From Candidatus Omnitrophota bacterium (GTDB lineage Bacteria; Omnitrophota; Gorgyraeia; Velamenicoccales; JABMQK01): a stretch of DNA of 64,000 bases. The notes under the pieces are model-generated. The model ran no database searches and was not told the origin of the DNA. It worked only from the letters and a program-made list of their open reading frames with translations. Positions 1 to 47,360 of the stretch are shown here, one piece after another. The stretch spans positions 6,032 through 70,031 of the forward strand of contig JAQTSV010000001.1 in assembly GCA_028711115.1 (NCBI GenBank), written 5' to 3'. A program made the position numbers and the translations under genes. Positions within the stretch are counted from its first letter, which is position 1. Every line of letters begins with the position of its first letter.

Positions 1-3000
1 GCTTATTAAGAGTGAGCTAATTTCATCTCTGTTTGTCAGCGCCATATTCTCTAATTGCTGTATCTGTGCATTGATGTATTCAAATATGGCTTTTGTTCTT
101 TCGTCGCGGAGCCCGTTCTCTGTATTGAATAAAGTTATGCCTGCGCCAACAGAACCTTTTACCAAATCCAAATCTCCGCCTCTGCCTTCTCTTAACTGCG
201 CCATCAAACCTGTCTGCAATTCTATATTGCCAACGCCCGATATAATTCTTTCCACAAAGTTTCGCTGCATTCTATTGTTTAGTCTATTTTCTGAGCCAGC
301 CAACACATCTCTATCAATGCTTGCGCTATAATATGCGGCGCCTAAAATTTCTCTCAACTCTTCCATGCTGTTTGTCGCTAAATCATCTATGGCTATGGGA
401 ATAGTTTTTGTCCCTGTAACTTGCTGATAATTTTCTCTTGCTGTCTGCAGCGCCTGTTGTGCGTCCTGCCAATTAGAGAGCAATTCATTAGGAATATTTG
501 CATAGCGCGGTTCATAAGTATTATATGTAAGGCCTTGTGCCTGCCAAATATCTTTTAATTCCTGCGGTATTTCTCCGCCTTCGAATAACCTTACTCTTAC
601 TGTAGCAGCCAATAAGTCTAAGTAAGCCAGCTTGATCTCTTGTTCTTTTTCTAATTTTGCGCGTTCCAATGTGAGCAGGGCGTTAAAATAATTAAATATG
701 ACGTCATCCATCTCTTTAGATTCTTTGCCGTCTTTGGCGAAAACACCGCTCAGTGTATTCCAGGCCTCGCCGGGCGTGGCTGTGATAGAAGCGACTAATC
801 CGCCTAAGAATCCTCTGTTATTTGCATCACTGTGCTGCAGAAACGCCGACACATTAAAATGATTTTCCTGAAGTTTCTTTAATAATACCTTCCAGCCTTT
901 TTCATCTAATTTAGCCAATCTTTCTTCAAATGCCTTTAATGCTCTATCGACTTCTGGATGCTGAGCGCGATATTCTTTTTCGAATTCTCCGTTATTTAAA
1001 ATCGCCAGCGCGTCTTGTAATGTTGCGGCTTGAGGGCTTGCGTCTCGTTCTCGTTCGCTCATTATATCCACAAGCTGTTGTCTTAAACGCTCGTATGCGT
1101 CTAATTGTGCTCTTTCGTCCTGTATCTTTCTCTGGGCTTTATTTTCCTTATCTAAGTTGGTGTATAATCCTAATCTTAAAGGATTGACTGCTCTGCCGCC
1201 AAACCTGACTTCAAAATGCAAGTGCGCCTCGGTTAGGGCTGCGTTGCCTGTCCTTCCGCTCTTGGCGATTATTTCACCTTTGGTGACTTTTTTGCCTTCC
1301 ACAACTCCTTCTGCGGCATTTGACAAGTGCGCATAAACAGTTACTATGCCGTTACCATGATCAATCTTTACTGTAAAACCATATCCATCTAAATTGCCCA
1401 CAAATGAAACTGTTCCTTCTGCTGCGGCGTAGACATCCGTGCCTTCGCTGGCTCTGATATCAATACCTTCGTGGAAATTCTCCAGCTTGCTTCCCGCCGG
1501 GCGCTGCCTGAATCCGTATCTGGCAATTATGTTATTCTCTATGTCGCTGCCTGAAATCGGGAATATGGCGTCTAAATCATTCCAAGATTGTGAATAATTT
1601 CCGCTGACCGCAACTTCTTCTGACTGCTGGGTATTCCAATTAGCATCTGTCTTTGCCTGTAGCACACCATATAAATAATTGGCTGTATTTTCGTTCCATT
1701 CGCCTGTTATAGGCAGCCCATTTTCTTTTTGGAACCGCTGGATAAGCGCTTTGGTATTTTCTAAATATGCGATTAAGCTGTTGTCTTTGTTTGCGTCGTA
1801 ACCTTGGTTATCTATTACTTTATAACCTAATATATCCAAAAATTTTCTATAGAATACCGCCATTTCTTTTTCGGCAAGTTTCTCTTCGACTTTCTTTGCT
1901 GTCTGCTCATTCCATCTGCCTGTAACATCTATACCTAAATTCTTTTGCAGCTCGCTGATTATGTCTCTCATCTTGCCAGTAAACACATTATCTAATTGTG
2001 GATAACCAAAGTTTTCTCTTGCCTGAGCAACGCCAAGGACTATTAACAAGTTATAAATTCTGGAAACACGAGAATCAACGTCGCCTATGCCTAAATCTAT
2101 TGCATCCAAGCCGTACATTGTGGACCTGGCCGAGCTTACGGATAATTCGCGCTCCTTTTGTTCCTGTATTTTATATTTAGCCACTAATTCGGCTAATTTC
2201 TTTTCTCTTTCGCCTTCGCTATACTTGCTTTGCCTTATATCTTCTATTGCTCTCCTTATCTCAGTTAATTCTTTACGGATAGCTTCCTGCTCATCTGATA
2301 ATTTCTTGCGCGCTTCTTGTGTTTGGTCTTTCTCTTTATTATCTTTACCCTGGAACTCATTATCTAACCCCTGCAGGACATCTCGGTTATTGCTTAATAA
2401 TTCATTCAATGCCTCTATGACAACTTGTATGCCCACTTCCTTGCTCTTCAAATATCCCAGATGGGCATTAATTCTGTCTACTTCGAATGCGGAAAATTCC
2501 TGTGAATATTTTTCTAAAGTATTTATAAGTATATCAACATCAACCTGATAGTCATAATCTTTGGCAGCGGAAACGATATTTAATACGCTAATTACATATT
2601 CCAAATAATCGCTAAGATCTCTTGCCTGTTCAATCTTATTCAATAACTCCTTCGTAGGTAAACCCTGACCTTCCCTTATGCGCGAAATAAGCTCTGAAAG
2701 AGTTAAGTCTCTCAACTGTTTATTCCTATCTTCTGCGACAGCCCGGGAAATTGCGTATTTAATGCCTTCTAATTCTACCTTATCTTTCACTGTTTCTTCA
2801 GCTTTGCCTTGCGCAATCTTTAACTGTAAAACTAAAATGTGTAATATCTGTTCTTTTGTCTTCTTGCCTATTTCGATGCCGTTGTTATCGCCTTCGGGAA
2901 TATTAAATGCCCTTGTTAAAATAAGCAGCGCGTCCCGGATTTCCTTATCGCTGAATAACTCAACACCGGATAAATCCATACCGCCCTGAATCATCCTTAT

Positions 3001-6000
3001 AAACTGCTGCATCTTATCCTGCGATTGCTCTAATACGCCGATGCTTCTTAATGCCGCGACAAGATATTCTCTTTCGACTTCCGGCTGCTTAATTCTCTCT
3101 ATAAGATATTCGGACTGCATATTCCTTAGCTGGGTTCTTGCCTGGGAAATTTCTGCGTTTAATTTATTTACTTTATCTAGTTTTTGTTTTAACGCTTCGC
3201 TATCCTGCGGATTAACAACAGTCTTGTTTAATTGCGTTAATTCTTTCTCCTTATCGCTAATAAACTTCTTCTTTTCTGCTATTTGCCTGCTGGCATCATC
3301 TGCTGGCTCGTTTTGCTGTGGCTCTGAAACATCCAATGTTTCTCTGTTGCTGCGGTTATTATTAACCATCTCTCTAACTTTGCTTTCTAAGTTGCTAACA
3401 TCGGTGTTTGCTTTATTTTTATCTGCTAGATAGCCTTTTAATTTAACCTCCAGCTCATGAATTCTCTGTTTTTCTTCCGGCGTAACATCAACTTTTGTTA
3501 TTAATCTTATGTATTCTTCTGTCTCCGGAATATGATTTATGGCAGCTTTATTTATTTCTATTCTTGCCTTGGCAATAACTATCTTCTCATTAACCAATTC
3601 TAATAATTCCTTGATTAATTCCTTTATTTCTGCGGATGTAGGTTCTGCTGAGGTGGCGGTATAGTTATGTCTCTTTCTAAAAGCATCAAGTCCTTTTTTC
3701 ATATCTTTGTCTTGCGGCTTAGCGTCGCCTAATGCGCGCAACATAGTCAGTATTTCACCTACGTTCAGCTGCGGATTGGTTTCATTCTGCAATTTCTCTA
3801 ACCGCGCTTTTTCTTTATCCAATTCTTTAGAAATACGTTCTTGTTCTGCAATGCCTAACTCTGCCTTCAGGCGTTCAATCTGCATTTCCATATCCAATAT
3901 CTTTGCATCAGCTTTACCAGATGTGGTTTCTTCTGCCTGCGCAGACTGAAGATCAAATTCAATAACCTTCTTCATTCTCTTAATCCTTGCTTCCTCTAAA
4001 GTGATACCTTCGTGCTGCGCCGACTGGATGTCTCTTATATCGCCTTCGCCGCCAAGCAAACTATAAATCCCCTGGCTGAATATTCCCTGGCTGGCAACTG
4101 GATTCATGCCTGTGGCCAATCCGTATAATCCTTCAAAAGAACCGATAACTTCATTACCAATTCCTATGATAGAACCTTGTACGGCTGTATCGGCAGCTCC
4201 CTGCAGCGTATTCTTGCCGCCTTCGAATGCGTGGGCGATGTTACTTATGGGCTCAAAAAATTGGCCGACTTCAGGAATTTCCACAAGATAATCTGCGCTG
4301 TTTGTAATGGCGCTGATTTCCGTTCCGATTATATACATTCCGCCGAAGCTCCTCCATGACTGGCCGGCAAAGTGCAAATAAATCTTTAAATAAATATTTT
4401 TTGTGAATAATTTTATCTTCGCATAATTTCCTAAAATAAATGCCAAGCCTGCAATTACAGGTATGGCTAAAACTATGATTCCCAACACAGGAGAAATAAC
4501 CCAGGCCTTTGCAGCTAATAATGGCAGGGCGAATGTGGCTAAATTGGCGAATGTAATAATCATCGGCTTTGTCTTATATGCAAACCTTGCCTTTCTTTGC
4601 GCGTCCTTTGATTTCATCTTAATTACAATCGGCTCATCTTTATTTTCATTTAATTCATTGAGTTCCTCTAATAATTTAGTGCGTATAGCCTTAATTAATG
4701 CCGGCTTAAACCTGGACTTGATTAAACCCAGCTCGTATAAATTCTTTATTGTATCCAATACTTTCTGTTTTTCTGCCGCGTCTTTATATTCCCTGGTAAG
4801 GGCTATGTAGATATCCGTTAGCTTCATACTGAAGCCGCCTACCATTTGTTTGGCCATAGCATATTTGGCAGGAATGCCGATTACCATATAACCTAAAACA
4901 ATAAGCAGCACTCTTAAAATTTGCCCTTGTGTATGCTGTATGCCTAAATTGCTTAATAAAGTTAAATTCTCCTGGCTTAAATGCATCCAGGCAATCAAAG
5001 ATTCTTTTACGTAAAATCCTAATACGCTGCCTAATATACCGGCAAACCCTACGCCTATTGCCGCGATTAAGATTCTTGCAAAATACAATCCGATGTAACC
5101 CGATAAGACTGGGTTATTGATGATAAATTTTTCTCTTCCTGCGCCCCTTATCTTAACTCCTGACTTTACGAGCTGATCATAAGCCTCCGCTTCGTCTTTT
5201 ATCTTTTGATAAAGTGTTGCATTGAGAAGATTATGGTCGTATGGCAACGCGGCTTTTGCCTTGGTGTATTCTACGGCGATGTCGCCTGCCTTGGTATTTG
5301 CCTCCTGCCTGTCCATAAAGAAGTTCCAGAATACTGAAACTAGATATCCGCCGAACACGCTCATAAATAATCCCAGGATTATAGCTGTAAATGTTATGTT
5401 TATCGCAGGAACAGTCACTATCACGAAGGCAGATATGGCCATCCAGATGTAGGTCTCGTAGGAAGCCAAAACTTTCCTAGGTTTAAAATAATCAATTATA
5501 GAATGCCTGTTCTGATTTCTTAAATCTCTGCGTATTCTGCCAAAAGCCCAGTATTCGGCAGGCGTGAAATTGGGTTTAAAGCCTAATCTTTTCTTAAGAC
5601 TATTGGTTATATAGGCGACTTTACCTTTTGCCAGCCTTCTTACGCTCACTACATTGTGGAATAATGACCAGGCAATAATTAAACCAACAAAAGAGTATAT
5701 TGCTGTATATACAAGTGGCACTAATAATGGCGAAATTCCCCAGCCCGCAACATTCAAAGCAGGAATCATTGTAAATAAATATGTAGAAATAATGACGAGT
5801 GTCAATAAGAATGCCACAACATAGCCGGAAGATAATATTGTGCCGAGTTTGGTATTCTTTATGGAAGGAGCGTTCTTTATGGCGGGAATCTTGGAAACTA
5901 ACTTTAATATCAATGTAGCTAAAGTCGAAATTGCAGCCAAGAGTATTGCCGGATGTTCACTGAATAACGCAATTAACAATTCCATAACCAAAGCTGGGGT

Positions 6001-9000
6001 TAAATTACTAGTAAGAGGAAGTAATACTAAAATAATTACGAAAAAGATTCGTAGCGCTAATTTATGAGAAGATAAAACTGAAGATTTAGGCGTAGTCTTT
6101 GTTGAATCTGTTGTATTGTCATCGGATATCGGGCTGCTGGAAATTCCTGTCTTTTCGGCTGACAGGCCTGCCTCCTTCACCGCCCTTGTCTGACTGACAT
6201 TGCCAATGCCGGCAATTTGGCTCAAATCTTGTTTAGTCATATTAAACGCAGCAATCGGGCTGGAGGATTCTCTCTCAATGCGTTCTTCTTGCATAACTAA
6301 TCTTACCGTGTGTATCTGGCCTAATTCTAAATTTGCTTTAGCCAATCTGTCATTTATTCCCAATAGATCAAATGAAACCTCAATGACTTGAGCAATAATT
6401 CCTGTGGCGATATCGAAAACAAATGTTTCATGTCTTTTTAATAATTTTAATTCTCTCGCCCTTTCTCGCATAATCATACCAGCCGTGATCACGTTAGGAT
6501 TCAATTCAAGGCTAAACTTTCTGATTACTTCTTCAATATGCCTTAATTCTAACAGACCGCTTAAAGGAGTTGTCCAGCCTCTTACTTTATCATTCAATGG
6601 CAAGCCTTTTGACTGCTCAAAAGCTTCTCCGCACTTTGCAATGAGGGCACGGTCACTTAATTCTCCACCGATCAATTCAGCAAGTGCTGTTTCAAATGCT
6701 GGTATTGGTGAACCATCCGGCATCCTTACAATAGTATCGCTATAGTCAGCAACAGCAAGTGCCCTGGGGCTCAAATGCTTTGTTTGAGGATGTGCGTTTT
6801 GGAGTTGGCTGCGGACTAACTGTTCGCTAAATGCATCTCCTTCTACATTAACTAAGAGCTGATTTTCAAACCATTTCACCATCCTGTTATCGCCTAAAAC
6901 CCATGTTCCAGGCGCATATGCTTTTGACCCTACAGTAGCAAGAGGATTATTCGTTTCTATTATTTCTCCTGTGAATATAAACCGTTTTTGTATCGGGCTA
7001 GAGGAAATTCCAACCCCATCCAGAGACCCAGCAACAGCGGGGGTGGTGCTGTTTCTCTGCCAAGCCTCTGGATTGGTTTGTATACCTATCTCTACTTCCT
7101 TCCTGCCACGGTAGGATGAGATAGGTGACGAAGAAATTCTATATCCGGATAATATAGCTTTAAACACAAGCCACACAATCGCCTTGTTGACATCATCATA
7201 TTCATTTATACGATTAAGCCATTGTATTGCCTCATCTGATGTTTTTGTAAATACCACTATTGTTTGCGGAGTATCTTTAGAATCTAAACTACGGATAATT
7301 TCATTGTTTACAAAATCATAAACTTCAAAATTTAAATTGCGGTATCTTTGTAATTCTTCGATATAAGCGCGGCGGCTGGCTTCTCTTAATGTGTAGAATT
7401 CATTGGTGGCTTCCATAGGAACAAATATTATGGTGCGTCTTTTTGCCTGGAACATATCGGACACTATCTGCCTGAATGTCTGATAGTGGCATACGCCAAA
7501 AGCGCCGCCTGTGACAACGAAAATATCGCCGGCTTCTAACATTGTTACCTGGGCCTGGCCTTCCACTAAACCGGCCTGTGAATGATAGGCAAATGTTCCT
7601 TTTCTTGTTTCATCTTGGCGCGGATAATTTGTGCCTGCGCTTATGGAATTAAGGGCAATCCTTCTGTCAATTATTTCGCTGTAATATAACGGGTCTATAC
7701 CTTCAGCCATTTTCTCATGAATCTTTGATTCGGTATTGCCGACATGGGTAATTGCGAGCGTGGATTCAGGATTTGATCCAGCCACCAAGAACTCAATAAT
7801 GCGGTTTATGAACTGCGCATTCATACTTACTAAATCCAGAGGGCTGCTGGAGGGGGTATTGCCAACAGCCAATTTCTCTGGATAAGTTTGCTCCTCTGCA
7901 CCTGCCACGGTAGGCGAGGAGCTGGTTTGTTCATTATTTATAATTCTATATCTGATCGGGGACGAAGCCCGGGATGTTCTTTTTAATTCACGTTGCAATG
8001 GTTGATCTTTCTTGCTTAAATATGCCAATCTATTCATTATCTCCATAGCTGATATTCGACCTTGAGTCACTACTTCTAAATTGGCAACTTCCTCGTCTAC
8101 TCCGGTAAGCGCTGCGCTAAGCAGGAATCCGTTTACAAAATTTAGTTTTCTCTGCAAGTTCCACCTTCTCCATAATGTATCAGCTGCCTCTATTACCTGT
8201 TTCTTCATATTTGATGGGCTGGAGCTGGTTCTTGTCTCTTTCACATCCATAGTGCTGCTGGAGGGGGTATTGCCAGCAGCACTTGGATTTTTATATGTTG
8301 CTCTGAAAGCACCTGCCACGGTAGGCCTCAAAGCAACCTGTGAATAAAATCTATCTGTTAAATTATTATTATTGATAATTACGGGTGAGGATATTGACGT
8401 GTCTATATTTGTCTGACGACCTGGCTCCTGTTTCAGGATGGGCGATGAGCCAGCCGCCATAATCGGAGTTGGCGCCAATCCTGTGCGAAGTGTCTGGGCT
8501 AAAGAAGCAATTACAGGGCTGTGATTTATGTTAAACTGCTCATCTATTGTCAAAACTCTTTCGCTTAAAGACGTAACGGAATTTACAGTAATCGGCGAAG
8601 AAGATCTTCCTCTGCCTGTGAATCCCGTGCTTCTGGCATTTCTTCTATTATTCCTGCCAGACATTTTGATAACAACTTTGGATGCTACTCTAATAATTCC
8701 TAAAACAACTTTCACTATACCTATAATAGAAACCAGCGTGATAACTGCCAAGTGCGTTACTGCACCTTGCCTTTTCTCAAAGTTTCCATGTATTGCCCTT
8801 TGCACAAATTTTGTTTCTCCCAAAACTTTTGCCGTTAACTTTGCCCTGAAAATTTCCAAGCGGCTCAAGCCTGAATATAGTCTGTATCTTATATGACCGT
8901 CGCCAGGGATTTTTAACCTTATTTCCCGCTTGCGCGCATAAAGCCTGTAAGCAGAATACAATCCTAAGATAACAAGTGCTCCCGCTGCAAAGAACTCAGC

Positions 9001-12000
9001 TATCCTCTCGCCTATTGTCATCATCATTCTATGCCTTGCCTGACGTTCTGCCTGTTGTATTGTTTCCTGCGATTGTGTATATTCACTATGAGACTTTTCT
9101 ATTTCTCTTTTTACCAATTCAGAAATTAGTTCGCCGTTTAACAAATATCCTCTTTCTTGTAAATGCGCGGTGAGTTCATTTAATTTTTCATTCCTGTAAG
9201 CATATTGTTCCGGATTATTTCTTATATTCAATGCCTCCTGGGCAAGCAGCCTGTATGTGTCTGGTGAAACATTCTGATCAAAGATAGGTAATACCCAATC
9301 GCTTGCACCATAACCATAGAGGTATTTCTCGACATAACCTTCGCTTAGGAAGAAAGCCAATAAAGAAGCCAGTTTATAGTCAAAAACCTGGCTTTCACGC
9401 GGATTGTCGTGTTCAATAAGCCTGAAATAAACTCTCTTTCTGCCTACGATTTCTAATCTGGAATTACGTTCCGTTAAAAGCTCATAACGCAACTTATCTT
9501 GTTCTGCATTGACAATACCTTTATATAATGCCAGAAACTCCAGACGTTTCCTCATATAGTTAATAGGCTCGGCGAGCCTCTTTCCTTTTTCAGTCTTGAT
9601 ATTCTTGGTCCATTCTATGTTTCCGTTGAATCTCGCAATCGCCCTGTCCACATTTGTGGTGCCGCAGTTGTACGCGGCGATAGTGGCCAAAGCCACGTCA
9701 AATCCATTGCCGTGCAGGCTGGCATAATCCAAAGTCTTGTCGGTTAACTGAGAACCAACCAAGACTTTCCTGCTATACCTGTCCCAGAGATACCACAAAT
9801 AGCTGTAGCCGATTCTCTGGTTATATAATTTATCGGTTTCGATTCTGCCGGTTCTTCTTTCTTGTTTCTTTGCCTTTTTGGTACCGGCAATGTATTCCTG
9901 GAGAGCGGCTTTTTTCTGTTTATTATCCAGTGTATGGTTATTATAAATCATTTCTACAATATCTCTGCCGATATTATCCCTGAATACCTTCATTCTTTGT
10001 ATATCTCTCGGGATCATTGCTATTGCTTCTGCGAAACTGGCCGGGCTAAATCCTGTATTGGGATTGGCCCTTACAAGCCCTTCGGGAATATTCTCCAACA
10101 TCTTTTCTATTGCTGCTTTTTCTTCAGCACCTGCCTTTAACCAAGCCGCAGCCAAGACATAATAGAGATTTACTCCCACAAGATTTTTGTCATCAATTAT
10201 CCTGCTATTTATTCTTCTCATCGCCTTTTGTTTATTGCCCGTATTATTGTACAATTTTATTAAATCTGCGATAACCTGATTACCTATATATCCTCTATCT
10301 GTCTCTTCTTCGCCCGCAAGCGAACCTACCCTTAATAATATGTCAAACAACATATTCACCATATGGTCTACAGCGTAATGCGGTACAACCTGGGTTGTCC
10401 CCAGGGCGCCTCTATAGGAAGTCACGACCAAAATCCTTCCCCATTTATCCAGCTGGAATTGCCTGAAGGCGGATTCGATATAATTCATCGACTCGGCCAA
10501 GTGCATAAATTCTTGTGATGCACCTGTTGCCGCCACAAATCTCTCTAATTCTTTGTATGTCAGGGTCTTGGTCCATTCTTGGATATCAGAAGGAACTGCG
10601 GAGAAGGATATCTTGGATATCTGCCGGTCTAATAATTCGTCCAATTTCTTTGCATCCTGTTCGTGCTCGCCGATTAATAATCTGATGTATAATTTACCTT
10701 CTCTTTCTTCAAAATCGACGAATTCAGCCAAACCATTTTCAGTTAAAACGCTTATTAATGTATCGTAATTTTGGGATCCTATAAATTGTTTCTCATCCGT
10801 AAATCCACGCACCTCTGCGCGCAAATCTGTGGGGTTCTCAAAGAATGTCGGCTGCGATGGCTGAGGCATAGTTGCCTTATGCTCAATTTGCCTACAGCTA
10901 TTCAAAGCCATAGCCAAAACTATAACTAATAATAAACTCCTGACCAACGGTGTCTTTCTAAACACCTCTAACGGCGAGGAAGCAGTCGCGCCTTCAAATC
11001 TTGCGCGATTGTCTCGGATGTATTGTAAAGAAGGTGCGACATACGGATGACTGATTTCTTGTTCCGGCATACGCTTTAACATCTCATCTAATAATTTCAA
11101 ACTAATCTTAATAACATCCAAGCGTTCATTTTCTTTCATCAATAACTCTAAATCCCTAATCATTCCAGCCCTGAAACTATCAAGTTCTTTTCCTTTTGTG
11201 AGCTCCTCAAGATATGACTCTCTGCCAAATGCCTCTAACACAGCCAAGGCAACATCCATTCTTGTTACTGTGAACTCTAATTCTGGGTATTGAGCCTCTA
11301 CTCCGTTGCTGGCTTCTCTACAGCCCTCTCCGGCTCCGATCAAACCAACCAGGAGCGCTGTAATAAAAATATCAAGATTAAATGGCTCGACGTTTCCAAA
11401 ATCAATAATTACTGCCTCATCTGTTGACTCGTTTGTTAATATGTTCATCGGCGTAGGATCTAAAATGAATTCTGACCCTTGCAGTTCTTTTACAATGGAA
11501 GCATAAACCTTAACCGCGTGGTAAAATAGTTTTAACCATCGTTCTTTTCTATCTTTAAGTTCTTCTCCTGCTCGAGGCTGCATTAACTTATCTAATCTGG
11601 GGAACTTTATATAGGCCTCTGTCCACATACCCTCCTGCCCTTTTTCTCTTTCTATAATCAAGGAGGCAGACCTAAGGGCTGTGGGCCGAGATGAAAGTAT
11701 CATATGCCTAAGGACTTCTCTGTTTAAACTTGACCACTTCCAATCCTGCCTTCTTACCACGCTATGTCTTATTGGCTTTACTACAAATTTGTATGTGGTG
11801 ATTTTTCCATTGATAAGAGCATCGACTTCCACCAAGAATACTGTCTTAAAAGCACCTTCATCTAAAAATCTTATCCTGGAACTAACCATTTGTTCCAATG
11901 TTAACCTGACATTATGTTCAATGAAGATAGTCTTTCTGGCCAGGGCATTTTCAGCCATATGTCTCAATATATATCTCCTTGCCCGCATGTAATCTTCTTT

Positions 12001-15000
12001 GTAGGCTTCGAAACTCATTGCATCATTACCATAGAAATTGTTATATCTTTCTCTTAACTCATTTTCTAATATTTCGCCTGATGGTTCACATTCTTCAGTC
12101 CCTGGCCTAATAAATTTAATTCCCAAACCTCTTCGCATTAACTCTCTAATACTAAATCTTTCCGGGAATAAAATATCTAGTTTTTCTTGTATGGCATTTA
12201 AAGCGTCATTGGCACGTTCTACAATTGAATTAGCCTGTTCATTAGTGAGCTTACCTCTCTCTTTAAATAAATTTCTATAATAAACCAATTCGGCAAGCAC
12301 GCCTCTGGCCATAAGGAAATCAGTATTGGTTGTAAATTCCATATCTCCCAATTGTTTAATTAAACCAAGCGTATCTTCACCTGCTAGTAAATTAAAGGAT
12401 ATGCGCCGTCTCAATTCCAATGCAATATCCGCTACTGTTAATTCTCTTATCGGGCTGGAGGCGGAACCGAATATCTGTACTCCTCTATCTAATAAAGTAT
12501 AAGGTAAGGCCATAATTATCTTTGTATCGCTAAGATTTGCTGCAGTTAAAGAAGCGGCAAACGCCTCTAATGTATCTCTTCTTTCTTTAGGTTCGGCCTT
12601 CCAGTTAGCAGCAATAATAGAATTTCTTCCTTGAGTAAGAGTTATCGGCGCAGGACCTATTACTTCAGCGATTTTGGCAATACTGGTAAATGACTCGGCC
12701 TTGAGACTTGCGCCTCCAATTAAGGCACCATCAATATTGGATTGGGATAATAGCTCTTGGGCATTGGTAGGATTAACGCTGCCACCATAGAGTATTTTTA
12801 ATTCTAAAGATAATACTCTGCTGTAGCTCCTTCTTATAAAATTACGGATTGCGTAGCTTATTTCTTCAGCTTGCTGAGGATTTGCTGTCAGACCAGTGTT
12901 TATTGCCCAAATAGGTTCATAGGCAATAGCTGTTAAGTAATTTAAGGCCTCTGGTCTAATGCCCCTTAAATTCTGTTCAAGTTGAGTTAAGACATAATCT
13001 AAATGTCTCCTTTCTTCTCTGACAGCTAGGGGTTCTCCACAGCAGAGTATTATCTCAAGGCCGTCGGGGGTAAGTACGGCCATTAGTTTTTCATTAATTA
13101 ATTTATCTGAATCGCCTTCTTGTATGCGTTCGACAACGGGTTTACCTTCTGGGCTACGTAAGACTGCTTTACCTGTATCATCCTTTTTATAAATAGGTAC
13201 ACCAGCCCTTGTTTCGCTATGACCAAGGAGTGAACCAAAGACACGTATTTCTCTTAAAAGTGCTAGATTTATCTTTCCTGTATGAGCACCCACTTCAAGG
13301 CTAAAGTCCTGAGCATAGATTGTTACCGGGCTGGAGGCGGAATAAATCTGTGTAATCTGCGGTATTAAATCTGCGTAATCTGCGGTTGCAGAGACAAAAA
13401 CACCCCTGACGTTCAGATTGTCCTTGTAATCTGCGAGGGTTCTTATATTATTTTTGGTTACAGGGCTAGAAAATACGAATTCCGAGAGCCTGTTTGAGGT
13501 TGCACTCGGGGACCTTGAGATTCCGTGGCTTTTTAACACAACAGAATTTCTGTCTGACTCTTTTATCGGGCTAGAGCCAGATGTCCGAACCTGATTTTCT
13601 AATCCAGTTAAGCCTTGTCTTAGGGCTTGTGCACTACCAGCCGCCATTACGGGCAGACTCATAATGCTTAACCCTAAAGCCCTTGGCCTTATACCTATAT
13701 TTGCTGCTCTGACGTTAGCTTGCGCTAAACTTATAAGGTATACACCTTGAGCATCCCCAATGCTGACAACTATTAAATTGCCTGCATTTTGGCCTAAGTT
13801 CTTTCCAAGAGAGAACTTAGAAGACCCAACCAAATTATAGCCGTAAACATACCTAGCTGTAGTGGAGTTCTCTAATCCTAGAGCACACTTGTAAGCAGAG
13901 AGACTTACAAGCGGCGAACTCACACCAGGGCTGCGTGCGCCATGATCGTTGCCAAGGTTAGTCCTTGACATACGATCTGGAGTAAGTTCACCTATTTGCC
14001 TTGCAAAAGGATCAGAAAGGGCAATAGGTGAGGAGATACTAAGAACTGCGGGTTGAAGCGCAGGAATATTGCTTATCACAAAACTATTCGTATTCTGTGT
14101 TGGCAAAGGCAATTGCACTGGAGATGATGTGGATATAGGCACAGCAGGAACTCTTGAAACAGGTGTCTGCTGAGATTCTGCTGTATTTTGTATCGGCGAA
14201 ACTGGAGCCAATAAATTATTCTGTATGTCTCTTAAATTTTCCAAGCCGGTAGCCAGCCTATTGGCCAAAGGCGAAGACGCTGGCTTGGTTACTTGTTTTT
14301 CAATTGCCATTTCCGGCATTGGCAGTTTAATTTCAGGAATTCTCCTTGTGCTTGCGCTGCCAACACCCAAAGGAGAACTCATTCTATTAAAGGCATTGCC
14401 TGTGCCTATACCGCCGCCAATACCAACATTGTTTGAGCCAAAACCTCTGCTGCCTGCAGCAAAACCTGTTCCGGCACCAGGCGCACCAGCATTATATCCG
14501 GCTATATTTCTGTTACCTATATTAGTTAAGGTTTGCGACTTAAGCGGCGAAGAAGCTGCATCTTGGAATCCTGCTAAATCGAAGAACAACTTGTTCTCTG
14601 TTGTGACTAAATCAATAGGCTGTTCATCTCTATCAACAGATAACTCCCAATCCAATTTTCTTATTATGCCTTTTAATTCATCAAATGTGCCAATGACATT
14701 CTGTAAATTGTCATTATCTAAACCTCGTCTTCCCCCCGCTAACAAACTTAAATAACCATAAATAGAACCAAATCCACGATTAGCGATATCAACGTTTACC
14801 CAACGACCTCCATAAGTCAAAGCATTCCACAACGGATAGATTTTTTCGTAGTTTGGTAATTCTTGGACAGGTATGAGATTAGTCTGCAGCTGCATATCTT
14901 TTGCTAATTGTACTGCGCCTTTAAAGGACTGTGCGCCTCTCATGCGAGAATGCAGTAAAAGCCCTAAAGGCCGCATTACTTCAATATCATATCTGTTATA

Positions 15001-27000: not shown

Positions 27001-30000
27001 AGGTTTCAGGGAGGCGATTGTAGAAGAGATATAGTGCGTGCCTTGTGCTGTAGTAGCTATGGTAAATGATGGCCTTGTGCCTCTGTCAATCCTTTCGGTA
27101 ATATCTTTTCCTTTAAAATCCTGGCGGATATACGCGCCTTGCAAAGGAGCATAACCTAATGGACCAACTTCATAATGTAGCCTATCTCCCCTATCTGTAA
27201 CTTTGGCGCTAACAGCATATCCCCGGACATCTATGCCTGTTGCTGTGAAATAATTACCATTATCTATATTAAGCAACTCATTAAAGAAATTATCTAATTT
27301 ATTATCTTTCTTTAAATCAGCGTATGTCCTTCCTTTGTCTAATCCGTATTTGCTTAACAGGCCGACTATAGCCTGGTTACCTTTACCTATATTAGTTAAT
27401 GTGGCGAGGTCTTCTACTTTTAATTTTATTCCATCTGAAGTAAGAATTAATTCTAAAGGACTATTAACATCCACATTTACATCCGCCACTGTCAGTGTTC
27501 TCGTACCTTCATTGGTGCCTGCGGATGTTGCAATAACATCAGAAGCCAGTCTCGCATCTCTTATGCCGACCGGGGAATTGGTTTCATTGAATGCAATGCC
27601 GCCCAGATCGTTGCCAAGTTTAGACCATGTTTCTGCACCAACTACTCCGTCTGCCTTCAGGCCATTGGCTTTCTGAAAATCTATTACAGCCTGCCTGGAC
27701 ATCGGCCCAAACCTACCGTCAATCTCGCCATTATAATAACCGGCATTCTTTAAGGCGGTCTGTATCTGTTTGGCGGTCGGCTGCATAACAACATTAAATC
27801 CTTCTATCAAATTACCGCTATTGTTTATACCCAGAGGAATCAATCTTGACTCAGGCGTATATTGAATTGCCGCCATTTCAAATTGATTATCATTATTATT
27901 TGCTAAATAGAGTCTGTAATTTCCTTCCCAGTTAAGAACTCCTTCTTGACGCTTTGCGTTAAACCTTGCTGTGGCACCTGCGGTGTTTGTAGGACGATTA
28001 TTAATTATGGCGATGCTGTCTCCTGACTCTAATTCAATTACAGGAGCATCTTGCCCTACTAATTTATAATGAGTGTCTCCGGCATAAAGTAAATTTGAAG
28101 GAGGCCTGCTGGTCTGCATTGTCTGGCCAGCCGCATTTGTTGCCCGTGCTCTTCCTTCAGGAGTGGTATCTATCACTTCTCTTGCGGCATCTGCATTGGC
28201 TATCCTATTTGTAATCTGCCATCCGCCTAAATTGCCTGGGGTGCTGTCTGCCCAGCCATTTAAAGAAGTACTGAGATCACTATTTATCAAAAGTCCCGGC
28301 TCAAAAGGCTTTAATCCTGATTCCTTATTTCTCTCATTAATTGCTTCTAAGGTTTGTCCTTGAGGCGGAATGGAAGAAACTTTAGTTACCTCTAGCGACG
28401 GAACTGTTAATTCCTCAGCGGAATCAACATTACCGGATTCAAGTACTAAGATCTTTCTGGTGCTGGGAGTGATAATTACAGCTTGCAAACCTTCGGCATT
28501 TTCTCCCACTGCCTGTCTTTTATCAGAAGTTGTTACTGTAAATGCGCCTAATCGCTGTCCTGCCTGCGTCTTAAAGTAATCCAGCTGTTGAATAATTTGT
28601 CCAACCTTGCCAATGGAATTACGCATTACCTGCGGAGTTATGCTTATAATCTTTCCCTCATCATCTCTCTGAATCTGTAAATCTACTTTATTAAGGTATA
28701 CATCTCCTGAAAAACCATCTCCTGTTGATCCCTGGACTAGATACAGAGGCTGATAGCTGTGGCCTTGGTTATCGCCAGTAAAAAGCTGAATCACAGTAGA
28801 ATCGTAAGAACCAATACCTGTTCCACCGAGAATGTTCGCATATGCGTTTATGGGTTCGCGGAAAGCCAAAGGAAAATCTTCTACAGTGAGATTCTTACCC
28901 TGTCCTATTCTGCCCGGTTCTATCCTGCTATAGAGTGATTCTAAATCAAGATCTTTGAGGTCGTCTTTTTTGCCGAATATTCTTACGTCTGTATTAGACA
29001 CTACTCTTGGTTCTGGACTTGTATTATATGTTTTTTCAACCTCTCTTATCTTCTCGCTTTCTGACTTTTCATAAACCTGGGGTTTATTCGTCCTATAATT
29101 TAGAGTCGTTACAAAAGGACTGTTGTCTAAAGAAGGCGAGATAAAAGCCATGCCTCTTTTATTCAACCATTCTTCATATTGGTATTTAGCAATATTAACT
29201 TCGTTGACTTCAGCAAAATGCGTGGTGGCTACATATGATCCACTATCGTCCCATGTGCCTTGTTCTGGATTATATACTGAAACTATATTCTGGGCTCCGC
29301 CTAAGTTTCTTCTGGATTTAACTACGATATCTTCCCGAGTAGCTACGACCTTTCGTTCTTTCTCTGTTGCTATGGCTGCTGTGGCTGTGCTGCCGGGATA
29401 TGCTGCTGATTTCAGTGTTTGTTCTATTTGTCTCTGCGTAATCTGTTCTGTATTATGCTGTGCAGTTTCAACATCTATATCATTGCCATTGACCAGCCAT
29501 GACTGCATAGTTCTGGCTCTTGCTGCATTAGAGCCTGAAGCAGGAGAGGTAACTGTAAAACCAAAAATATCTATGCTTTCAATATTATTCACGTGGCCTG
29601 TAGCTGTAGCTTTTGTGGTTTTCTTATCCAATAGTTCTATGACTTGGCCAGTGCTCTGGACATTAAGAACACCCGGGGCATAAAGCGCACGCTGATTATC
29701 GGGTGACACAACTTGAGGAGCGTTTTGTGGAAGATTCTCTTGGCTTGTTTTCTCAGTCTGCTTAAAATCCGTCTTGACCATTAATTGCGATACGGCTTCC
29801 TGAGGAATCATATTCTGCGCCCCGCCATTTTCGAAATCCAACAGGTAAGAAACTGTGCTGCCCTGATTTATCTGCCATACATTATCTTTACCTTCAACTT
29901 TGGATATGCGAGCTAAATTCCAAGCCGGCTGAAGCGGAATGCCTGATGCCGCAGCGCCACTATTATTATAAAGGTAGCTTAATGCCTGACTAAAACTGAA

Positions 30001-32998: not shown

Positions 32999-33889
32999 TT
33001 ACCTTAATCCTCCCAAGCCTCCGGTAGTGACAAATTGCAATAATACCGGTCCTCCCACAATTACGGCCACCACAGGCAGAATAAAGAATATCAAAGGTAT
33101 GAGCATCTTCATGGGTGCCTGCAGGGCTATCCTTTCCGCGCGTCTGAAAAACCTCTCGCGTACATCGTCTGAAAGGACGCTCAATGCCTGGGCAATAGGA
33201 ATACCCATTCTGTCGGCCTGAATGAGCGTGCGGCAAAATGCTGTGACATCAGGAAGGCTTAAGCGTTTTGCCATATCCGCAAGTGCGTCCCTGCGAGACT
33301 TTCCTACTTTTATTTCGTGTAATACCAAACTAAGCTCCTCTGTAAATGCATTAGCAAAAGATTTATCTACAATCCATCTGGCTGCGGCAATGAAATCCAG
33401 GCCTGCATCCACGCACAACGATAATAAATCCACCGTATCCGGAAGCGTCCGGATTATTTTTGACCTTCTATCCTGTACTTTAAAATTCAGCCAAATGTCC
33501 GGTGCGATAAAACCCACTATAGGCAGTATTATTAATGGCGCCACATCGCCGCTTCTTATGAACAGAAAAGTCAAAAACAAAAAGAAGAATGCCAATAATT
33601 CTTTTATGGCCAGGAAGTGCTCCGGCATCATAAATAACCTGGCTGCAAACATTTTCTCTTCCATTTTATTTCTCTTAAAAAATTTATTAACCAGCATATA
33701 GTTAACCGGCACGAAGAAATCCAGCATCGTGCCAAAGAAAGATTTTTTATTCTTGGTGCTGTATGCGTCCACCTTCAGTCTCCGTTGAATTGCCGTCTTT
33801 AATTCATAGGAGGTAAGCATTACAATCAAAACATTTGCCAGCAGTACGATTATCGCTATAAATAGAATTATCTGTGCAATTATCTCCAT
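32999..33889 (-). CDS. tadC: Tad pilus assembly inner-membrane platform protein TadC (T2SS-F family)
   Basis: 296-aa ORF. LPDTVDLLSLCVDAGLDF..LHEIKVGKSRRDALADMAKRL..FCRTLIQADRMGIPIAQAL..FILPVVAVIVGGPVLL is a typical TadC/GspF-type domain with flanking TM helices. Confidence 0.85.
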   Translation of the reverse strand: MEIIAQIILFIAIIVLLANVLIVMLTSYELKTAIQRRLKVDAYSTKNKKSFFGTMLDFFVPVNYMLVNKFFKRNKMEEKMFAARLFMMPEHFLAIKELLAFFFLFLTFLFIRSGDVAPLIILPIVGFIAPDIWLNFKVQDRRSKIIRTLPDTVDLLSLCVDAGLDFIAAARWIVDKSFANAFTEELSLVLHEIKVGKSRRDALADMAKRLSLPDVTAFCRTLIQADRMGIPIAQALSVLSDDVRERFFRRAERIALQAPMKMLIPLIFFILPVVAVIVGGPVLLQFVTTGGLGGLR

Positions 33890-33897
33890 ATCCTCTC

Positions 33898-34782
33898 CTA
33901 TAAATTCACCCTGCCGAACATCCTGATTAAAAATACGCCTACGATTTCCGAAATCACCGCGTACAGCAAAAGCCCCCTGCCCATAGGATTCGACAGCATA
34001 ATATCAAAGTAGTGCGGGTTAAAAGAATAAACCATTATCGTAAACACAATGGGCAAAAGTGACATAACCACGCCCTGAATCTTTCCCTGCATGCTCAGTG
34101 TCTTGACATTATCCGAGAGTTTAAGTTTTGCCCTGATAGTATTAATCAGGGTGCCGAACAATTGCGTAATATCGCCGCCGGTTTCTCTGGCCACCAGTAT
34201 CGCAGTGGTAAGTAAATTCAATTCTTCCGAAGGCATACGTTTGTTTAATCTGTCAAAAGATTCTTCCAAAGACATACCCATTTTATTCTCTCTTAAGATA
34301 ATGCCGAACTCCTGGCTGATGGGCGCAGGCAATTCCTCGACAAGCGCTTCAATCGCCTGCAGCAAGCTCAATCCTCCCTTAAGGCAGCTGGAAAGTATCA
34401 TCAGCCCGTCGCTAATCTGGGCATGAAATTTTTGCTTCCGGCCGACTATCATTCTCTTAAAAACAATACTAGGGATAAGAAAACCGATGGCCAGACCCAG
34501 CAATGCGCCGATGACATAGCTACCGAACACTCTCCCGAAAAATACGGCAGATACCAATGTGCAAATTGTGGGAGAAAGGGTATTAAACAGAACCAGTTTT
34601 TTGGCATCGATAAACAGCATCATCTCTTTTAAATTCATCTTCTGCTCTTCAATTTTGCGTGAGCGCCAACCAGAAAAAACCTTGAGCGCCACAGATGTAA
34701 ATTGCACGCCCTGGCTGGCAAGAACATAAATCGCACCTGCGATCAAGATGAAAACTACAAATTTTAAAATATCTGATGCCAT
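33898..34782 (-). CDS. tadB: Tad pilus assembly inner-membrane platform protein TadB (T2SS-F family)
   Basis: 294-aa ORF. LSSCLKGGLSLLQAIEALVEELPAPISQEFGIILRENKMGMSLEESFDRLNKRMPSEELNLLTTAILVARETGGDI, with TM helices at both ends. Confidence 0.85.
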   Translation of the reverse strand: MASDILKFVVFILIAGAIYVLASQGVQFTSVALKVFSGWRSRKIEEQKMNLKEMMLFIDAKKLVLFNTLSPTICTLVSAVFFGRVFGSYVIGALLGLAIGFLIPSIVFKRMIVGRKQKFHAQISDGLMILSSCLKGGLSLLQAIEALVEELPAPISQEFGIILRENKMGMSLEESFDRLNKRMPSEELNLLTTAILVARETGGDITQLFGTLINTIRAKLKLSDNVKTLSMQGKIQGVVMSLLPIVFTIMVYSFNPHYFDIMLSNPMGRGLLLYAVISEIVGVFLIRMFGRVNL

Positions 34783-37830: not shown

Positions 37831-38948
37831 GTCTTACTTCCTTGTTCTGACCTTGTGGTTGAATATTCTTCAGTCCGCACACTTGCCGCTGGCTGCGCAA
37901 TACCAGTCGTCTGATCCAAATGATCATTATATAAAATCGCCCTGGTTGTGGTCGTATTCCAATAAATATCGTCGGTGGTTGCAATGCCTGAGGCGCCTTC
38001 TGTCTTTCTCATCTCTAAATCTGTATTTACCTGTTGAGTATATTCGGGCTGAATGCCCATAGCCTGCACAGGCCTGCCTGAACCAGGAAAAGCGAATAGT
38101 TGCTCTATATGAGGAAAACTCCAGGTATCATTCTGTTCATAAAGACCGGCGTAACCATTGTGGTATCCTCCCGGCAGAGAAAATGGGGCGCCGTTGTGAT
38201 ACAAATCATAAAGATACCAAGGGACAAGCACTTCTTTAGCGCAAACTGAACTACAAGGAGTTGTATCGCCGGGTTTCTTTCCTCTCTCGCATTCCTGTGT
38301 GCAAAAATCCTGGTCCACAATCAAACGCGCCTGTCTTATGGCGTTATTATAATCCACTATCTCTCCTTCACAATAATCTACAACTGTTATAGTTCTGTTG
38401 CTACCCTGACAACCATCACCACTACACCATCCCCTGACATTGCCATATATTAAACCATATTTATCTCTTAAATATCTGTATTCATCTCCATTTTCCGGAA
38501 TATGTATATACTCGTCTCTTAATCCTGCTGTGGCTAAGGCGCGTTCCTGAGTGACTACCTGACCGTTTACTTTTCCCTGAAATTGCATAACCAGCTTGGG
38601 CAGACCATCGTAATCAGCTGCTGTGGCGTCTGCATTAGAGTCACGGGTGACGCTGGCTGATGCCATAAACGGGCTTACCTGGCCTACGCCAAACGGACTG
38701 GAAGGATCAGGAATGTGCCTGTCTTTGACAAGCACATATGTAGCTGAACCGTATGGCTGGCCACCGTTATCATTCTTAAAAGCCAGCTCCTGCGCTTTAC
38801 GAAATGCCTCCATCTGAGCCTGTTGCTGGAAATTGTATCTTAAACCGTATGCAACCAGAACGCCCAAAAGGAGCAGAATTAATGAACCGAAAATAGACAG
38901 CTCAAGCAGCGCCTGACCATTTTTAGTTTTTATATTTTTTATCATCAT
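37812..38948 (-). CDS. Large TadE-like protein with a Cys-rich extracellular domain
   Basis: 378 aa. KNGQALLELSIFGSLILLLLGVLVAYGL is a TadE-like N-terminus. A Cys cluster follows: WCSGDGCQGS..DYCEGE..DFCTQECERGKKPGDTTPCSSVCAKE. Confidence 0.6.
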   Translation of the reverse strand: MMIKNIKTKNGQALLELSIFGSLILLLLGVLVAYGLRYNFQQQAQMEAFRKAQELAFKNDNGGQPYGSATYVLVKDRHIPDPSSPFGVGQVSPFMASASVTRDSNADATAADYDGLPKLVMQFQGKVNGQVVTQERALATAGLRDEYIHIPENGDEYRYLRDKYGLIYGNVRGWCSGDGCQGSNRTITVVDYCEGEIVDYNNAIRQARLIVDQDFCTQECERGKKPGDTTPCSSVCAKEVLVPWYLYDLYHNGAPFSLPGGYHNGYAGLYEQNDTWSFPHIEQLFAFPGSGRPVQAMGIQPEYTQQVNTDLEMRKTEGASGIATTDDIYWNTTTTRAILYNDHLDQTTGIAQPAASVRTEEYSTTRSEQGSKTWQTGQ

Positions 38949-39355
38949 TAAAAAGCCCCTACTGTTTCTGTGCCGGTTCTTGATTGTTCATCCATATTTG
39001 TGGTGACTATGGTTGTGGCATTGACTCTATTAGCTGTTCTGTCTACATCGACAAGAGAAGTGCTGGTAATATCGCTACTGGTTGTAATTGTAAAATCAGA
39101 TTCTGTCGCGCCTGGCTCATACTGGCTGCCGATACTGTCAGCTGACTCGCGTATTTTTCCCTGAATACCGCGCTTAAGATAACTCTGCATTGCAATTAAA
39201 GCCACAATGATAACCACAATCACAAAAGCATATTCAATTACAGACGACTGACCAATTATGTTTTTAAAAAGATTTTTTAAAGATTTAAAATGAGGACAAT
39301 TTTTATCGCCCTGTTTTATATTCATATTACCGATTGTTTTATTCTGTTTGTTCAT
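38948..39355 (-). CDS. flp: Flp-type pilin paralogue (long, 135 aa from Met9)
   Basis: GQSSVIEYAFVIVVIIVALIAMQSYLKRGIQGKIRESADSIGSQYEP. The ATG at 39355 lies 2 nt after the upstream stop; the track start at 39379 would overlap the upstream gene. Confidence 0.7.
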   Translation of the reverse strand: MNKQNKTIGNMNIKQGDKNCPHFKSLKNLFKNIIGQSSVIEYAFVIVVIIVALIAMQSYLKRGIQGKIRESADSIGSQYEPGATESDFTITTSSDITSTSLVDVDRTANRVNATTIVTTNMDEQSRTGTETVGAF

Positions 39356-39357
39356 AA

Positions 39358-39732
39358 TTATAACTCGTGGTCCTGCCACGAAGTACTCACTCCTGTGTTA
39401 TCAGAATCCTGATTAAATGTGGATGTCACTTTGGAACTGTCGCCCGCGCCTTCCTCTTGAATTCTCATGCTTGCCTGCGACGTAGAACGCATCGCGATAT
39501 TCTGCGACATTGCTCTCTCCGCATTTGTCTCCATATATTCCTGGTTGCCTAATTGATCGGCGCTGTATTTAATCACTGACTGAATTCCCCGTTTCATATA
39601 AATTTGCATGGCAAGTAGGGCCGCAGACACTACAGCTATTAACAGTGCGTATTCTGCAATGCTTTGGCCCATTGTCTTTTTTGAGTCCTTAGTTTTGAGT
39701 TTTAAGTTTATCTTTATCATTCCTCTTGCCAT
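39358..39732 (-). CDS. flp: Flp-type pilin paralogue (124 aa)
   Basis: TMGQSIAEYALLIAVVSAALLAMQIYMKRGIQSVIKYSADQLGNQ. Confidence 0.75.
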   Translation of the reverse strand: MARGMIKINLKLKTKDSKKTMGQSIAEYALLIAVVSAALLAMQIYMKRGIQSVIKYSADQLGNQEYMETNAERAMSQNIAMRSTSQASMRIQEEGAGDSSKVTSTFNQDSDNTGVSTSWQDHEL

Positions 39733-39786
39733 TTCTGCCCTGTTATTTATGACTTATATAATATAGGCAGAAAATTCATTGCCCTC

Positions 39787-40113
39787 CTAATTTGTAGTAT
39801 TGTACTCATCTTCAAAGTTACCCATAGTTTCTGAACCTGTGCGCTGCTGCCAGGAATCCTCATACTTTGTAGTTGTCGTCCAGGCGTCCTGTGCTTCAGT
39901 TGTGTTTGAAAACGACTCGGTCCTATAATTGTATGTGGTATGGTCTGGAGAAAACTGATCTCCGATCTGATCCGCGGAATCCCTCATCCTACCCTGTATA
40001 CCGCGTTTCAAATATGCCTGTATAGCAATAAGGGCCATAATTACCACCACCACGAGTATTGCATACTCCAAGGTGCTTTGGCCTCTCTTTTTTGTCCTTA
40101 ATAAACGCATCAT
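39787..40113 (-). CDS. flp: Flp-type pilin paralogue (108 aa)
   Basis: MMRLLRTKKRGQSTLEYAILVVVVIMALIAIQAYLKRGIQGRMRDSADQIGDQFSP. Confidence 0.8.
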   Translation of the reverse strand: MMRLLRTKKRGQSTLEYAILVVVVIMALIAIQAYLKRGIQGRMRDSADQIGDQFSPDHTTYNYRTESFSNTTEAQDAWTTTTKYEDSWQQRTGSETMGNFEDEYNTTN

Positions 40114-40152
40114 TTATTCACCCCCTAACTTAAGTAGTTAGTTTTAGTTTGA

Positions 40153-40506
40153 CTAATCATTACCCTCTGACCAGTTGCCATATGTAATTTGACCTGTCCT
40201 GGCTGTATATTCATTTGTGATATCCCGCGTAATTTGACCACCCTTTTCCATGGCCTCAGATCTATCTGACCTGGATGCTGTGGACATGTTGGACTCCATA
40301 TAATATGGCTCATACTGAGATTGGGTAAATATGCCTTCACCTGTCTCATTGCCAATTGTCATACTATAATCCATTGCATCCTTTATGCGCGCCTGCATGC
40401 CACGACGCACATAAATCTGCATGGCTATGGCTGCCGCCACGATAACGCCGATTAATATTGCGTACTCTGCTGTATTTTGAGCTCTTTTATTTAGAAATCG
40501 TATCAT
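40153..40506 (-). CDS. flp: Flp-type pilin paralogue (117 aa)
   Basis: MIRFLNKRAQNTAEYAILIGVIVAAAIAMQIYVRRGMQARIKDAMD. Confidence 0.8.
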   Translation of the reverse strand: MIRFLNKRAQNTAEYAILIGVIVAAAIAMQIYVRRGMQARIKDAMDYSMTIGNETGEGIFTQSQYEPYYMESNMSTASRSDRSEAMEKGGQITRDITNEYTARTGQITYGNWSEGND

Positions 40507-44717: not shown

Positions 44718-44789
44718 ATTTAACCTTCTTTCTTTTTTTGTGTTTATTATACCCGGCCATATCGGATTGGCCGGCGTGTCATTTCTCTT

Positions 44790-47264: not shown

Positions 47265-47311
47265 ATCATTTTTCTGTTACGCCCAGCGCTTATCGGAATT
47301 GCGTGGGTGTT

Positions 47312-47360
47312 GCGCATTCTGCGCTAAAGGAGACCGCGGCAGAGCCTTGCCCTGCCACGG
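47312..47360 (-). promoter_or_regulatory. Intercistronic stem-loops between pstS and pstC
   Basis: GCGCA-TTC-TGCGC (47312-47324) and CCGCGGCAG-N9-CTGCCACGG (47334-47360, one mismatch). No U-tract, so more likely an mRNA-stability or attenuation element than a full terminator. Confidence 0.35.

Follow-up and report, generated by a model that had tools for sequence, protein, structure and literature searches.

The giant proteins of Omnitrophota are mostly unannotated, and the cell-wall digestion proposed for them rests on the few domains that can be recognized. Among those described by West-Roberts et al. 2023 (bioRxiv 10.1101/2023.11.21.568195) are the Archaeovorins, products of genes larger than 90 kb, which carry a consistent set of glycosyltransferase, methyltransferase, glycoside hydrolase, and NUDIX domains along with SecA-like domains. 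The same work lists C39, triosephosphate isomerase (TIM), and SLT for Omnitrophota giant proteins and reports, as conserved upstream of their genes, gspD, gspE, gspF, rcpC, a gene for a Rotamase_2 protein, and genes for class III signal peptides. M23 goes unmentioned in its main text, as it does in the main texts of Seymour et al. 2023 (PMC10066038) and of a 2026 Omnitrophota preprint. The subject of this report is a giant gene on the minus strand of a 64,000-nucleotide stretch of DNA from Candidatus Omnitrophota bacterium (the whole stretch is henceforth the window) and, within its product, a module in which two PG_binding_1-like domains precede an M23 (LytM-type) peptidase domain.

The encoded protein is akin to the published ones in its phylum, in a signal-peptide-like N-terminus followed by a C39 domain, in its many transmembrane (TM) helices, its TIM domain, and its SLT-like region, and in the locus upstream of its gene. 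The N-terminus with C39 and a conserved upstream locus resembling type II secretion systems (T2SS) and Tad systems are traits that it has in common with the Archaeovorins in particular. However, a Pfam search (E<=0.01) of the 10,998 residues encoded in the window turned up none of the glycosyltransferase, methyltransferase, glycoside hydrolase, NUDIX, or SecA domains, and with the defining set of domains absent, the protein was rejected as an Archaeovorin in the strict sense. What is visible of its gene, 38.8 kb or more, is also short of the Archaeovorins' >90 kb, but the gene is cut by the end of the contig.

The M23 domain itself finds its best matches, by sequence and by structure, in M23B DD-endopeptidases and carboxypeptidases of diderm bacteria: NMB0315/NGO1686 of Neisseria, Pgp3 of Campylobacter, Csd3 of Helicobacter, ShyA of Vibrio, and MepM of E. 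coli. These share with it the same full fold, the HxxxD and HxH motifs, the third histidine, and 30-37% identity over the domain. Their setting is different: the stand-alone enzymes are periplasmic proteins of 250-450 residues with LysM, OapA, or Csd3-N accessory domains, whereas here some 10,500 residues precede the domain in a protein of at least 12,939 residues and its partners are of the PG_binding_1 type. The degenerate LytM factors EnvC, NlpD, and DipM are alike in having a LytM fold after a long helical region, an association with the membrane, and strong structural matches. They differ in that the active site is intact here and an FtsEX-type partner is without evidence; the window protein was rejected as a degenerate factor of the EnvC/NlpD type on the grounds that all five catalytic residues are intact. 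A wall hydrolase (M23 or SLT) is likewise held in cis with a murein-crossing machine in tape measure and internal proteins of phages, but the likeness is limited to the M23 domain, and the context here is not that of a phage. Other trans-envelope machines, too, use dedicated wall hydrolases to pass the wall, and the likeness to those of type III and type IV secretion systems and of flagella is drawn only as an analogy.

The M23 module and its relatives

An earlier note on this DNA, made from the letters alone, had claimed a catalytically intact M23 endopeptidase and had named a search with the Peptidase_M23 profile as a check, the lack of a match to count against the claim. The search gave a clear match: Pfam Peptidase_M23 (PF01551) scores 108.2 bits against a cut-off of 28.7 (E=2.5e-31) and is covered from position 2 to position 96 of 96, while none of the NCBIfam equivalog cut-offs is reached by the domain. 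The zinc ligands to which the note had pointed are there as well, H10508 and D10512 in HEGID (HxxxD) and H10593 in HLH (HxH). (Residues are numbered from the codon at window position 32994 as residue 1; NCBI residue numbers are 16 lower.) They are accompanied by the catalytic histidines H10591, the first of HxH, and H10556 in 'VYAHLS', which we take to be the counterpart of H260 in LytM, following the established numbering of that enzyme. All five residues align with their equivalents in solved active M23 enzymes (best PDB match by sequence: 3slu, E=9e-21), and in a 74-sequence alignment each of the five has an invariant or near-invariant column, that of H10556 being invariant. In the DNA, the His and Asp codons of HxxxD were checked and read gtg and atc on the plus strand (positions in Table 1). 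Since the triad of M23 motifs alone arises in 16 of 2000 shuffles of the protein, it is the profile score, not the motifs, that is the decisive evidence for M23.

The predicted structure bears this out. An alignment-based AlphaFold2 model of the module has a mean predicted local distance difference test score (pLDDT) of 83, with values above 95 in the M23 core; it replaced a single-sequence run whose pLDDT of 41 made it unusable. In a Foldseek comparison of the model with the PDB, the top 50 hits are all M23/LytM domains, with target TM-scores up to 0.83, and the LytM domains of EnvC and DipM are among the best structural matches. PHROGs matches to the domain belong to endolysin and tape measure families, and a cyanophage 'internal protein' is among the PDB hits. 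That the domain is a real M23 domain is nearly certain, and it is an M23B-type zinc metallo-endopeptidase domain with a complete active site, preceded by two PG_binding_1-like domains. It is also likely to be catalytically active on murein. It is probably a DD-endopeptidase, cutting the peptide links of murein, because its nearest characterized relatives are the diderm enzymes named above and matches to lysostaphin-type enzymes are far weaker.

The two peptidoglycan (PG)-binding-like repeats claimed beside the M23 domain are also present, though not quite where they had been put. PG_binding_1 (PF01471) matches two stretches beside M23 (41.2 bits in total against a cut-off of 23), and each repeat is a complete PG_binding_1-like unit of ~65-70 residues, helical in the AlphaFold2 model with a pLDDT of about 80-90. 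The note had set the repeats and the peptidase within positions 1180-1980 (residues 10,339-10,605), but the first unit starts near 2079, about 100 bases outside that span. The module of two PG-binding domains and M23 spans window positions 1165-2079 on the minus strand. It was correctly placed more than 10,400 residues into the protein, with the M23 domain starting at about residue 10,488, and the full protein is longer than the contig-cut gene shows.

An exhaustive HMMER search found three long relatives that share the flanks of the module, all of them partial Omnitrophota proteins: P0121 (7,087 residues, 61% identity; assembly GCA_028717585.1, contig JAQUNN010000001.1), P0122 (4,162 residues), and P0123 (2,475 residues; MFC1709912.1). 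In NCBI, they go by the name of 'peptidoglycan DD-metalloendopeptidase family protein' or of 'M23 family metallopeptidase'. A word-indexed homologue search with the module returned only ordinary M23 proteins of 250-450 residues, 45-55% identical over the catalytic domain alone, and no relative was found when GTDB genome contigs and JGI metagenome contigs were scanned with the last 1,100 in-window residues, two collections that evidently do not include the source genome. All four proteins are collinear through the two PG-binding domains and M23. P0121 and P0122 keep all five catalytic positions, at 39-61% overall identity. The gene for P0121 looks split into three, but the splits are scaffolding gaps (runs of N), and from residue 5,669 onward the relative stays collinear; that separate genes had been fused was therefore rejected.

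Conservation is uneven along the protein. Identity to P0121 is 77.5% in the M23 domain and 75.7% in the first PG-binding domain, against 50.6% in the upstream linker and 57.9% overall, and that the M23 domain and the first PG-binding domain stand above the overall value fits functional constraint. (Identity per segment was used in place of dN/dS, the ratio of nonsynonymous to synonymous substitution rates, since saturation of synonymous sites is to be expected at 58% protein identity.) P0123 is another matter. At its residues ~256-344, NTGIN stands in place of HxxxD and YIH in place of HxH, a loop is deleted, and the M23 score is only 36 bits. It is a degenerate, LytM-factor-like version within the same giant-protein family.

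The note had gone on to speak of a complete cell-wall-breaching toolkit, in which an SLT module that cuts glycan strands joins the M23 domain that cuts peptide cross-links. The part concerning M23 and the PG-binding domains stands; that concerning SLT is less secure. Family-1 lytic transglycosylases have a catalytic Glu-Ser, a GLMQ-type motif, and an AYNxG motif, in that order. The only candidate region in the giant protein follows it with 'IES', 'SYRGALGTTQVVPHYA', and 'AAYNCG' but includes ~200 inserted residues, and 0 of 2000 shuffles reproduce the first two, the pattern having been chosen after seeing the sequence. Pfam SLT (PF01464) scores 15.0 bits natively and 20.8 bits with the insert spliced out, both below the cut-off of 21.3. 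A PDB sequence search with the region, native or with the insert removed, gave no match, a word-indexed search gave no homologue, and PHROGs matches are marginal only. About 135 residues upstream of the motifs lies the segment RSLLLVIVLAMALNSC, with a positive flank, a hydrophobic core, and 'ALNSC', which holds 1 of only 11 cysteines in the frame. Such a lipoprotein-like segment would suit a membrane-bound transglycosylase and may be the relic of a fused gene for one. An SLT module at residues ~7,501-7,830 is plausible from these motifs, and so is the toolkit itself; to call it complete goes beyond the evidence.

Position of the module and its possible target

By hydropathy, a signal-like segment stands at the N-terminus of the giant protein, isolated candidates occur in a few other places, and segments crowd together at residues 8,980-9,522, after which no hydrophobic segment occurs up to the window edge. 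There is none in the charged linker that separates the cluster from the module and none after the module in the relatives, where a TM-free C-terminal region continues for at least 3,700 further residues. P0121 runs 3,930 residues past the equivalent of the window edge without a stop, and a Pfam search of the 4,288 residues after its M23 domain found no domain. The charged linker, which is probably helical, ties the module to the cluster of TM helices. In P0122, only ~90 residues separate a signal-anchor or lipoprotein-like helix from the start of the first PG-binding domain.

Most probably, the two PG-binding domains would keep the module on murein, where the M23 domain would hydrolyse peptide cross-links or stems. 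In our preferred reading, the module, placed between the inner-membrane helix cluster and the very long C-terminal region that is free of TM segments, would act in the producer's own periplasm. It would fix the base of that C-terminal region, taken to be exported, to the sacculus, and M23 would open a local gap in the wall for the region, or the adjacent pilus-like machine, to pass. The note had allowed for the wall of a neighbour or prey as well as for the producer's own. Our slight and tentative lean is towards the producer's own sacculus as the target. We lean this way because the nearest characterized homologues are housekeeping endopeptidases that act on the producer's own sacculus, because inner-membrane helices tether the module and no further helices follow, and because the tether in P0122 is so short. 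The lean owes something also to published work on Omnitrophota, according to which they have complete peptidoglycan synthesis and the only cultured relative preys on an archaeon, a murein-free organism.

Several observations weigh against a periplasmic enzyme working on its own wall. The linker of ~640 residues is longer than such an enzyme should need. If 10 helices are modelled, alternate loops hold 33 versus 2 Lys+Arg, and 5 Lys+Arg but no acidic residues lie in the flank that follows the last helix, so that the positive-inside rule would put the module in the cytoplasm; helix calling was by a crude hydropathy heuristic, however, and the charge count is likewise crude. P0121 has the same charge bias as the window protein, while that of P0122 is the opposite, its last helix resembling a signal anchor that leads to the exported side. 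A transglycosylase-like region together with M23 resembles offensive toolkits, and the PHROGs matches to endolysin and tape measure families could be read in the same sense. Finally, since P0123 is without zinc ligands, catalysis is not universally required in this family.

An offensive role is the published hypothesis for this class of proteins. The module would be displayed on the surface or delivered, perhaps through the secretin machine, and would cut the murein of a bacterial host or prey at contact, in concert with the SLT-like region. Omnitrophota giant proteins with this upstream locus have been proposed to serve for adhesion to prey and for digestion of walls, attached cells of V. archaeovorus have a giant protein at higher abundance, and the Tad systems of the phylum cluster with those of predators. 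The window protein offers an intact active site, three PG-binding domains, and a long linker that could give reach, and M23 domains occur in phage lysis and tape-measure proteins. But a module behind inner-membrane helices must cross the producer's own wall and, in what appears to be a diderm cell, the outer membrane, and no secretion or cleavage signal was found beside it. Moreover, the enzymes most like it are housekeeping endopeptidases, murein is absent from the known prey of the cultured relative, and the SLT region is unconfirmed. Attack on a foreign wall is a strong rival reading, a little less likely than action on the producer's own.

If the charge signature is taken at face value, with its count of 33 versus 2 and the positive flank recurring in P0121, then the module would lie in the cytoplasm, either as an accreted, drifting relic with no access to murein or as a cargo that acts only after an as yet unseen step of export or release. 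By the same logic, the TIM domain falls on the inner side and the SLT-like region on the outer one, and both positions make sense. However, the PG_binding_1 and M23 domains of characterized proteins act outside the cytoplasm, and conservation of the catalytic residues and the peak of identity around them argue against drift. The charge bias of P0122 is opposite, helix calling is crude, and West-Roberts et al. 2023 report unreliable or odd localizations for such proteins. A cytoplasmic or latent domain is improbable. Least probable of all is a non-hydrolytic factor of the LytM type, serving mainly as a platform that binds or activates other hydrolases or as an anchor to the wall, for which, as with EnvC, NlpD, and DipM, catalysis would be dispensable. 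The succession of membrane association, long helical region, and LytM domain does recall EnvC-FtsX, EnvC and DipM are among the best structural matches, and P0123 keeps the module despite NxxxN, YxH, and the loop deletion; yet the five catalytic positions, lacking in the known degenerate factors, are kept in the window protein, P0121, and P0122, and the M23 core is the peak of conservation.

The giant gene, its other domains, and the upstream locus

The minus strand from 32994 to 1 is a single stop-free frame of 10,998 codons, open at the window edge, and the plus strand of the same region has only short open reading frames (ORFs). Candidate starts are ATG 32991 and ATG 32946, of which NCBI uses the latter. 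A neighbouring protein of 296 residues is matched exactly in an Omnitrophota metagenome-assembled genome, NCBI assembly GCA_028714715.1, contig JAQTLW010000001.1, where window position w is position w+5872 of the record (window 1 is record 5873). The neighbouring proteins are named 'Candidatus Omnitrophota bacterium' in three assemblies, and another assembly, with a contig of 1,566,446 bases, carries the same ones. NCBI calls the giant gene at 12,939 residues, and the call reaches position 1 of the 1.55 Mb contig, so the end of the contig truncates the gene, unless the chromosome is circular and the gene wraps around. The figure of 12,939 residues is a minimum, and the C-terminus is missing from the record. 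Cysteine is nearly absent from the frame (window 1-32994, minus strand), accounting for 11 of 10,998 residues, or 0.1%.

Table 1. Positions of the module, of other features of the giant protein, and of genes upstream
Feature	Window positions	Strand	Residues	Remarks
M23 (LytM-type) catalytic domain	1165-1533	-	~10,488-10,610	Pfam core 1180-1476
M23 catalytic codons	1471-1473; 1459-1461; 1327-1329; 1222-1224; 1216-1218	-	H10508; D10512; H10556; H10591; H10593	
Linker, second PG-binding domain to M23	1510-1656	-	10,447-10,495	61% identical to P0121
Second PG_binding_1-like domain	1657-1857	-	~10,380-10,446	
First PG_binding_1-like domain	1870-2079	-	~10,306-10,375	P0122 equivalent covers profile positions 4-52 of 57
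Charged linker	2095-4017	-	~9,660-10,300	~640 residues; Pro/Gly-poor; patchy heptad periodicity
Cluster of about 10 TM helices	4429-6057	-	8,980-9,522	last hydrophobic segments before the module
SLT-like region	9505-10494	-	~7,501-7,830	lytic transglycosylase motifs, ~200-residue insert; sub-threshold in Pfam
Lipoprotein-signal-like or TM segment RSLLLVIVLAMALNSC	10894-10950	-	7,349-7,367	upstream of the SLT-like motifs
TIM domain	12670-13359	-	6,546-6,775	Pfam E=5.7e-53; best PDB match E=7e-39
Third PG_binding_1 domain, canonical	27616-27774	-	1741-1793	E=3e-19
Peptidase_C39-like domain	32167-32436	-	187-276	E=4.7e-7; profile positions 42-128 only; after the signal-peptide-like N-terminus
Giant ORF, in-window part	1-32946	-		stop-free from 32994; at least 1,957 more codons past window position 1
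Two T2SSF (TadB/TadC / GspF-type) platform genes	32999-34782	-		directly upstream of the giant gene
Four small pilin-like genes	38948-40506	-		weak, sub-threshold Flp / class III signal peptide matches
514-residue ORF	41814-43358	-		only match a weak transposase HTH (HTH_Tnp_Tc3_2), E=0.0035, below cut-off
Phosphate regulon	44040-53560	-		OmpR-type response regulators 50270-51013 and 52865-53560; sensor histidine kinase, Porin_5 porin, PstS, two permeases, PstB, PhoU
ParA-type + T2SSE fusion ATPase	53760-55925	-		
Secretin	55969-57624	-		
RcpC/CpaB	57626-58489	-		
Rotamase_2 peptidyl-prolyl isomerase	58617-59543	-		

The C39-like domain is matched by only part of its profile, but 'TCGAYSL' at residue 132 (window 32599-32601, minus strand) provides a candidate catalytic Cys ~55 residues upstream of the match. 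This may be the missing catalytic-Cys segment, in which case the domain may be catalytically complete. The TIM domain keeps the motifs around its catalytic His ('GHSETR') and Glu ('AYEPIWAINTG'). Its Pfam match leaves the first 45 profile positions uncovered, and a beta-1-like 'IIAANWK' occurs just past the C-terminus of the domain (~12580-12610, minus strand), which suggests that the TIM unit is circularly permuted or that a second, partial unit is present; the TIM domains reported in Omnitrophota giant proteins by West-Roberts et al. 2023 come with no mention of permutation. The third PG_binding_1 domain lies ~8,500 residues upstream of the M23 module and has no recognizable catalytic domain beside it. 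P0121 has HEAT repeats (HEAT_2, E=5e-9) at residues 911-965, between TM segments, without an equivalent Pfam match in the window protein at E<=0.01.

The giant gene lies directly downstream of a Tad/T2SS-like locus typical for Omnitrophota giant genes. The gap between it and the nearer platform gene is 52 bases if counted to ATG 32946 and 7 bases to ATG 32991. The best full-length matches to the ATPase of the locus in GTDB genomes are from Omnitrophota metagenome-assembled genomes, at 56% and 52% identity. That the cell is diderm is indicated by a secretin, a porin, and a TonB_C domain, all encoded in the window. The phosphate regulon splits the Tad-like locus into a half with the secretin and ATPase and a half with the pilins and platform, and the 514-residue ORF, situated between the phosphate and pilin-like genes, might mark a point of rearrangement.

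Meaning for the giant proteins of Omnitrophota

Much of the setting is already known. The protein class, the upstream locus, and the idea of wall degradation have been published, and the NCBI pipeline labels relatives as members of a DD-metalloendopeptidase family. The present finding, that a giant protein of the Tad-associated kind already published for Omnitrophota contains an M23 module, is a modest and incremental addition. Its value lies in the module itself, for an intact and conserved M23 endopeptidase with PG-binding domains is a rare part of such a protein that can be put to biochemical test, as a fragment of ~330 residues. Murein being bacterial, the module suggests either hosts that are bacteria or a producer that remodels its own wall, whereas the prey of the cultured relative is archaeal.

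One might go further and suppose that in this lineage the giant envelope protein, associated with the Tad-like machine, is a single-chain device for breaching murein, directed against bacterial and not archaeal hosts. With segments on alternate sides of the inner membrane, the TIM domain would lie inside and the SLT-like region in the periplasm, and the PG-binding/M23 head, with the region of more than 4,000 residues that follows it, would be exported by a route other than Sec, e.g., the adjacent secretin system, despite the cytoplasmic-type charge signature. This is speculation to which we give little credence. If it were true, the type of host could be read from whether giant proteins have the M23 module and whether that module is degenerate.

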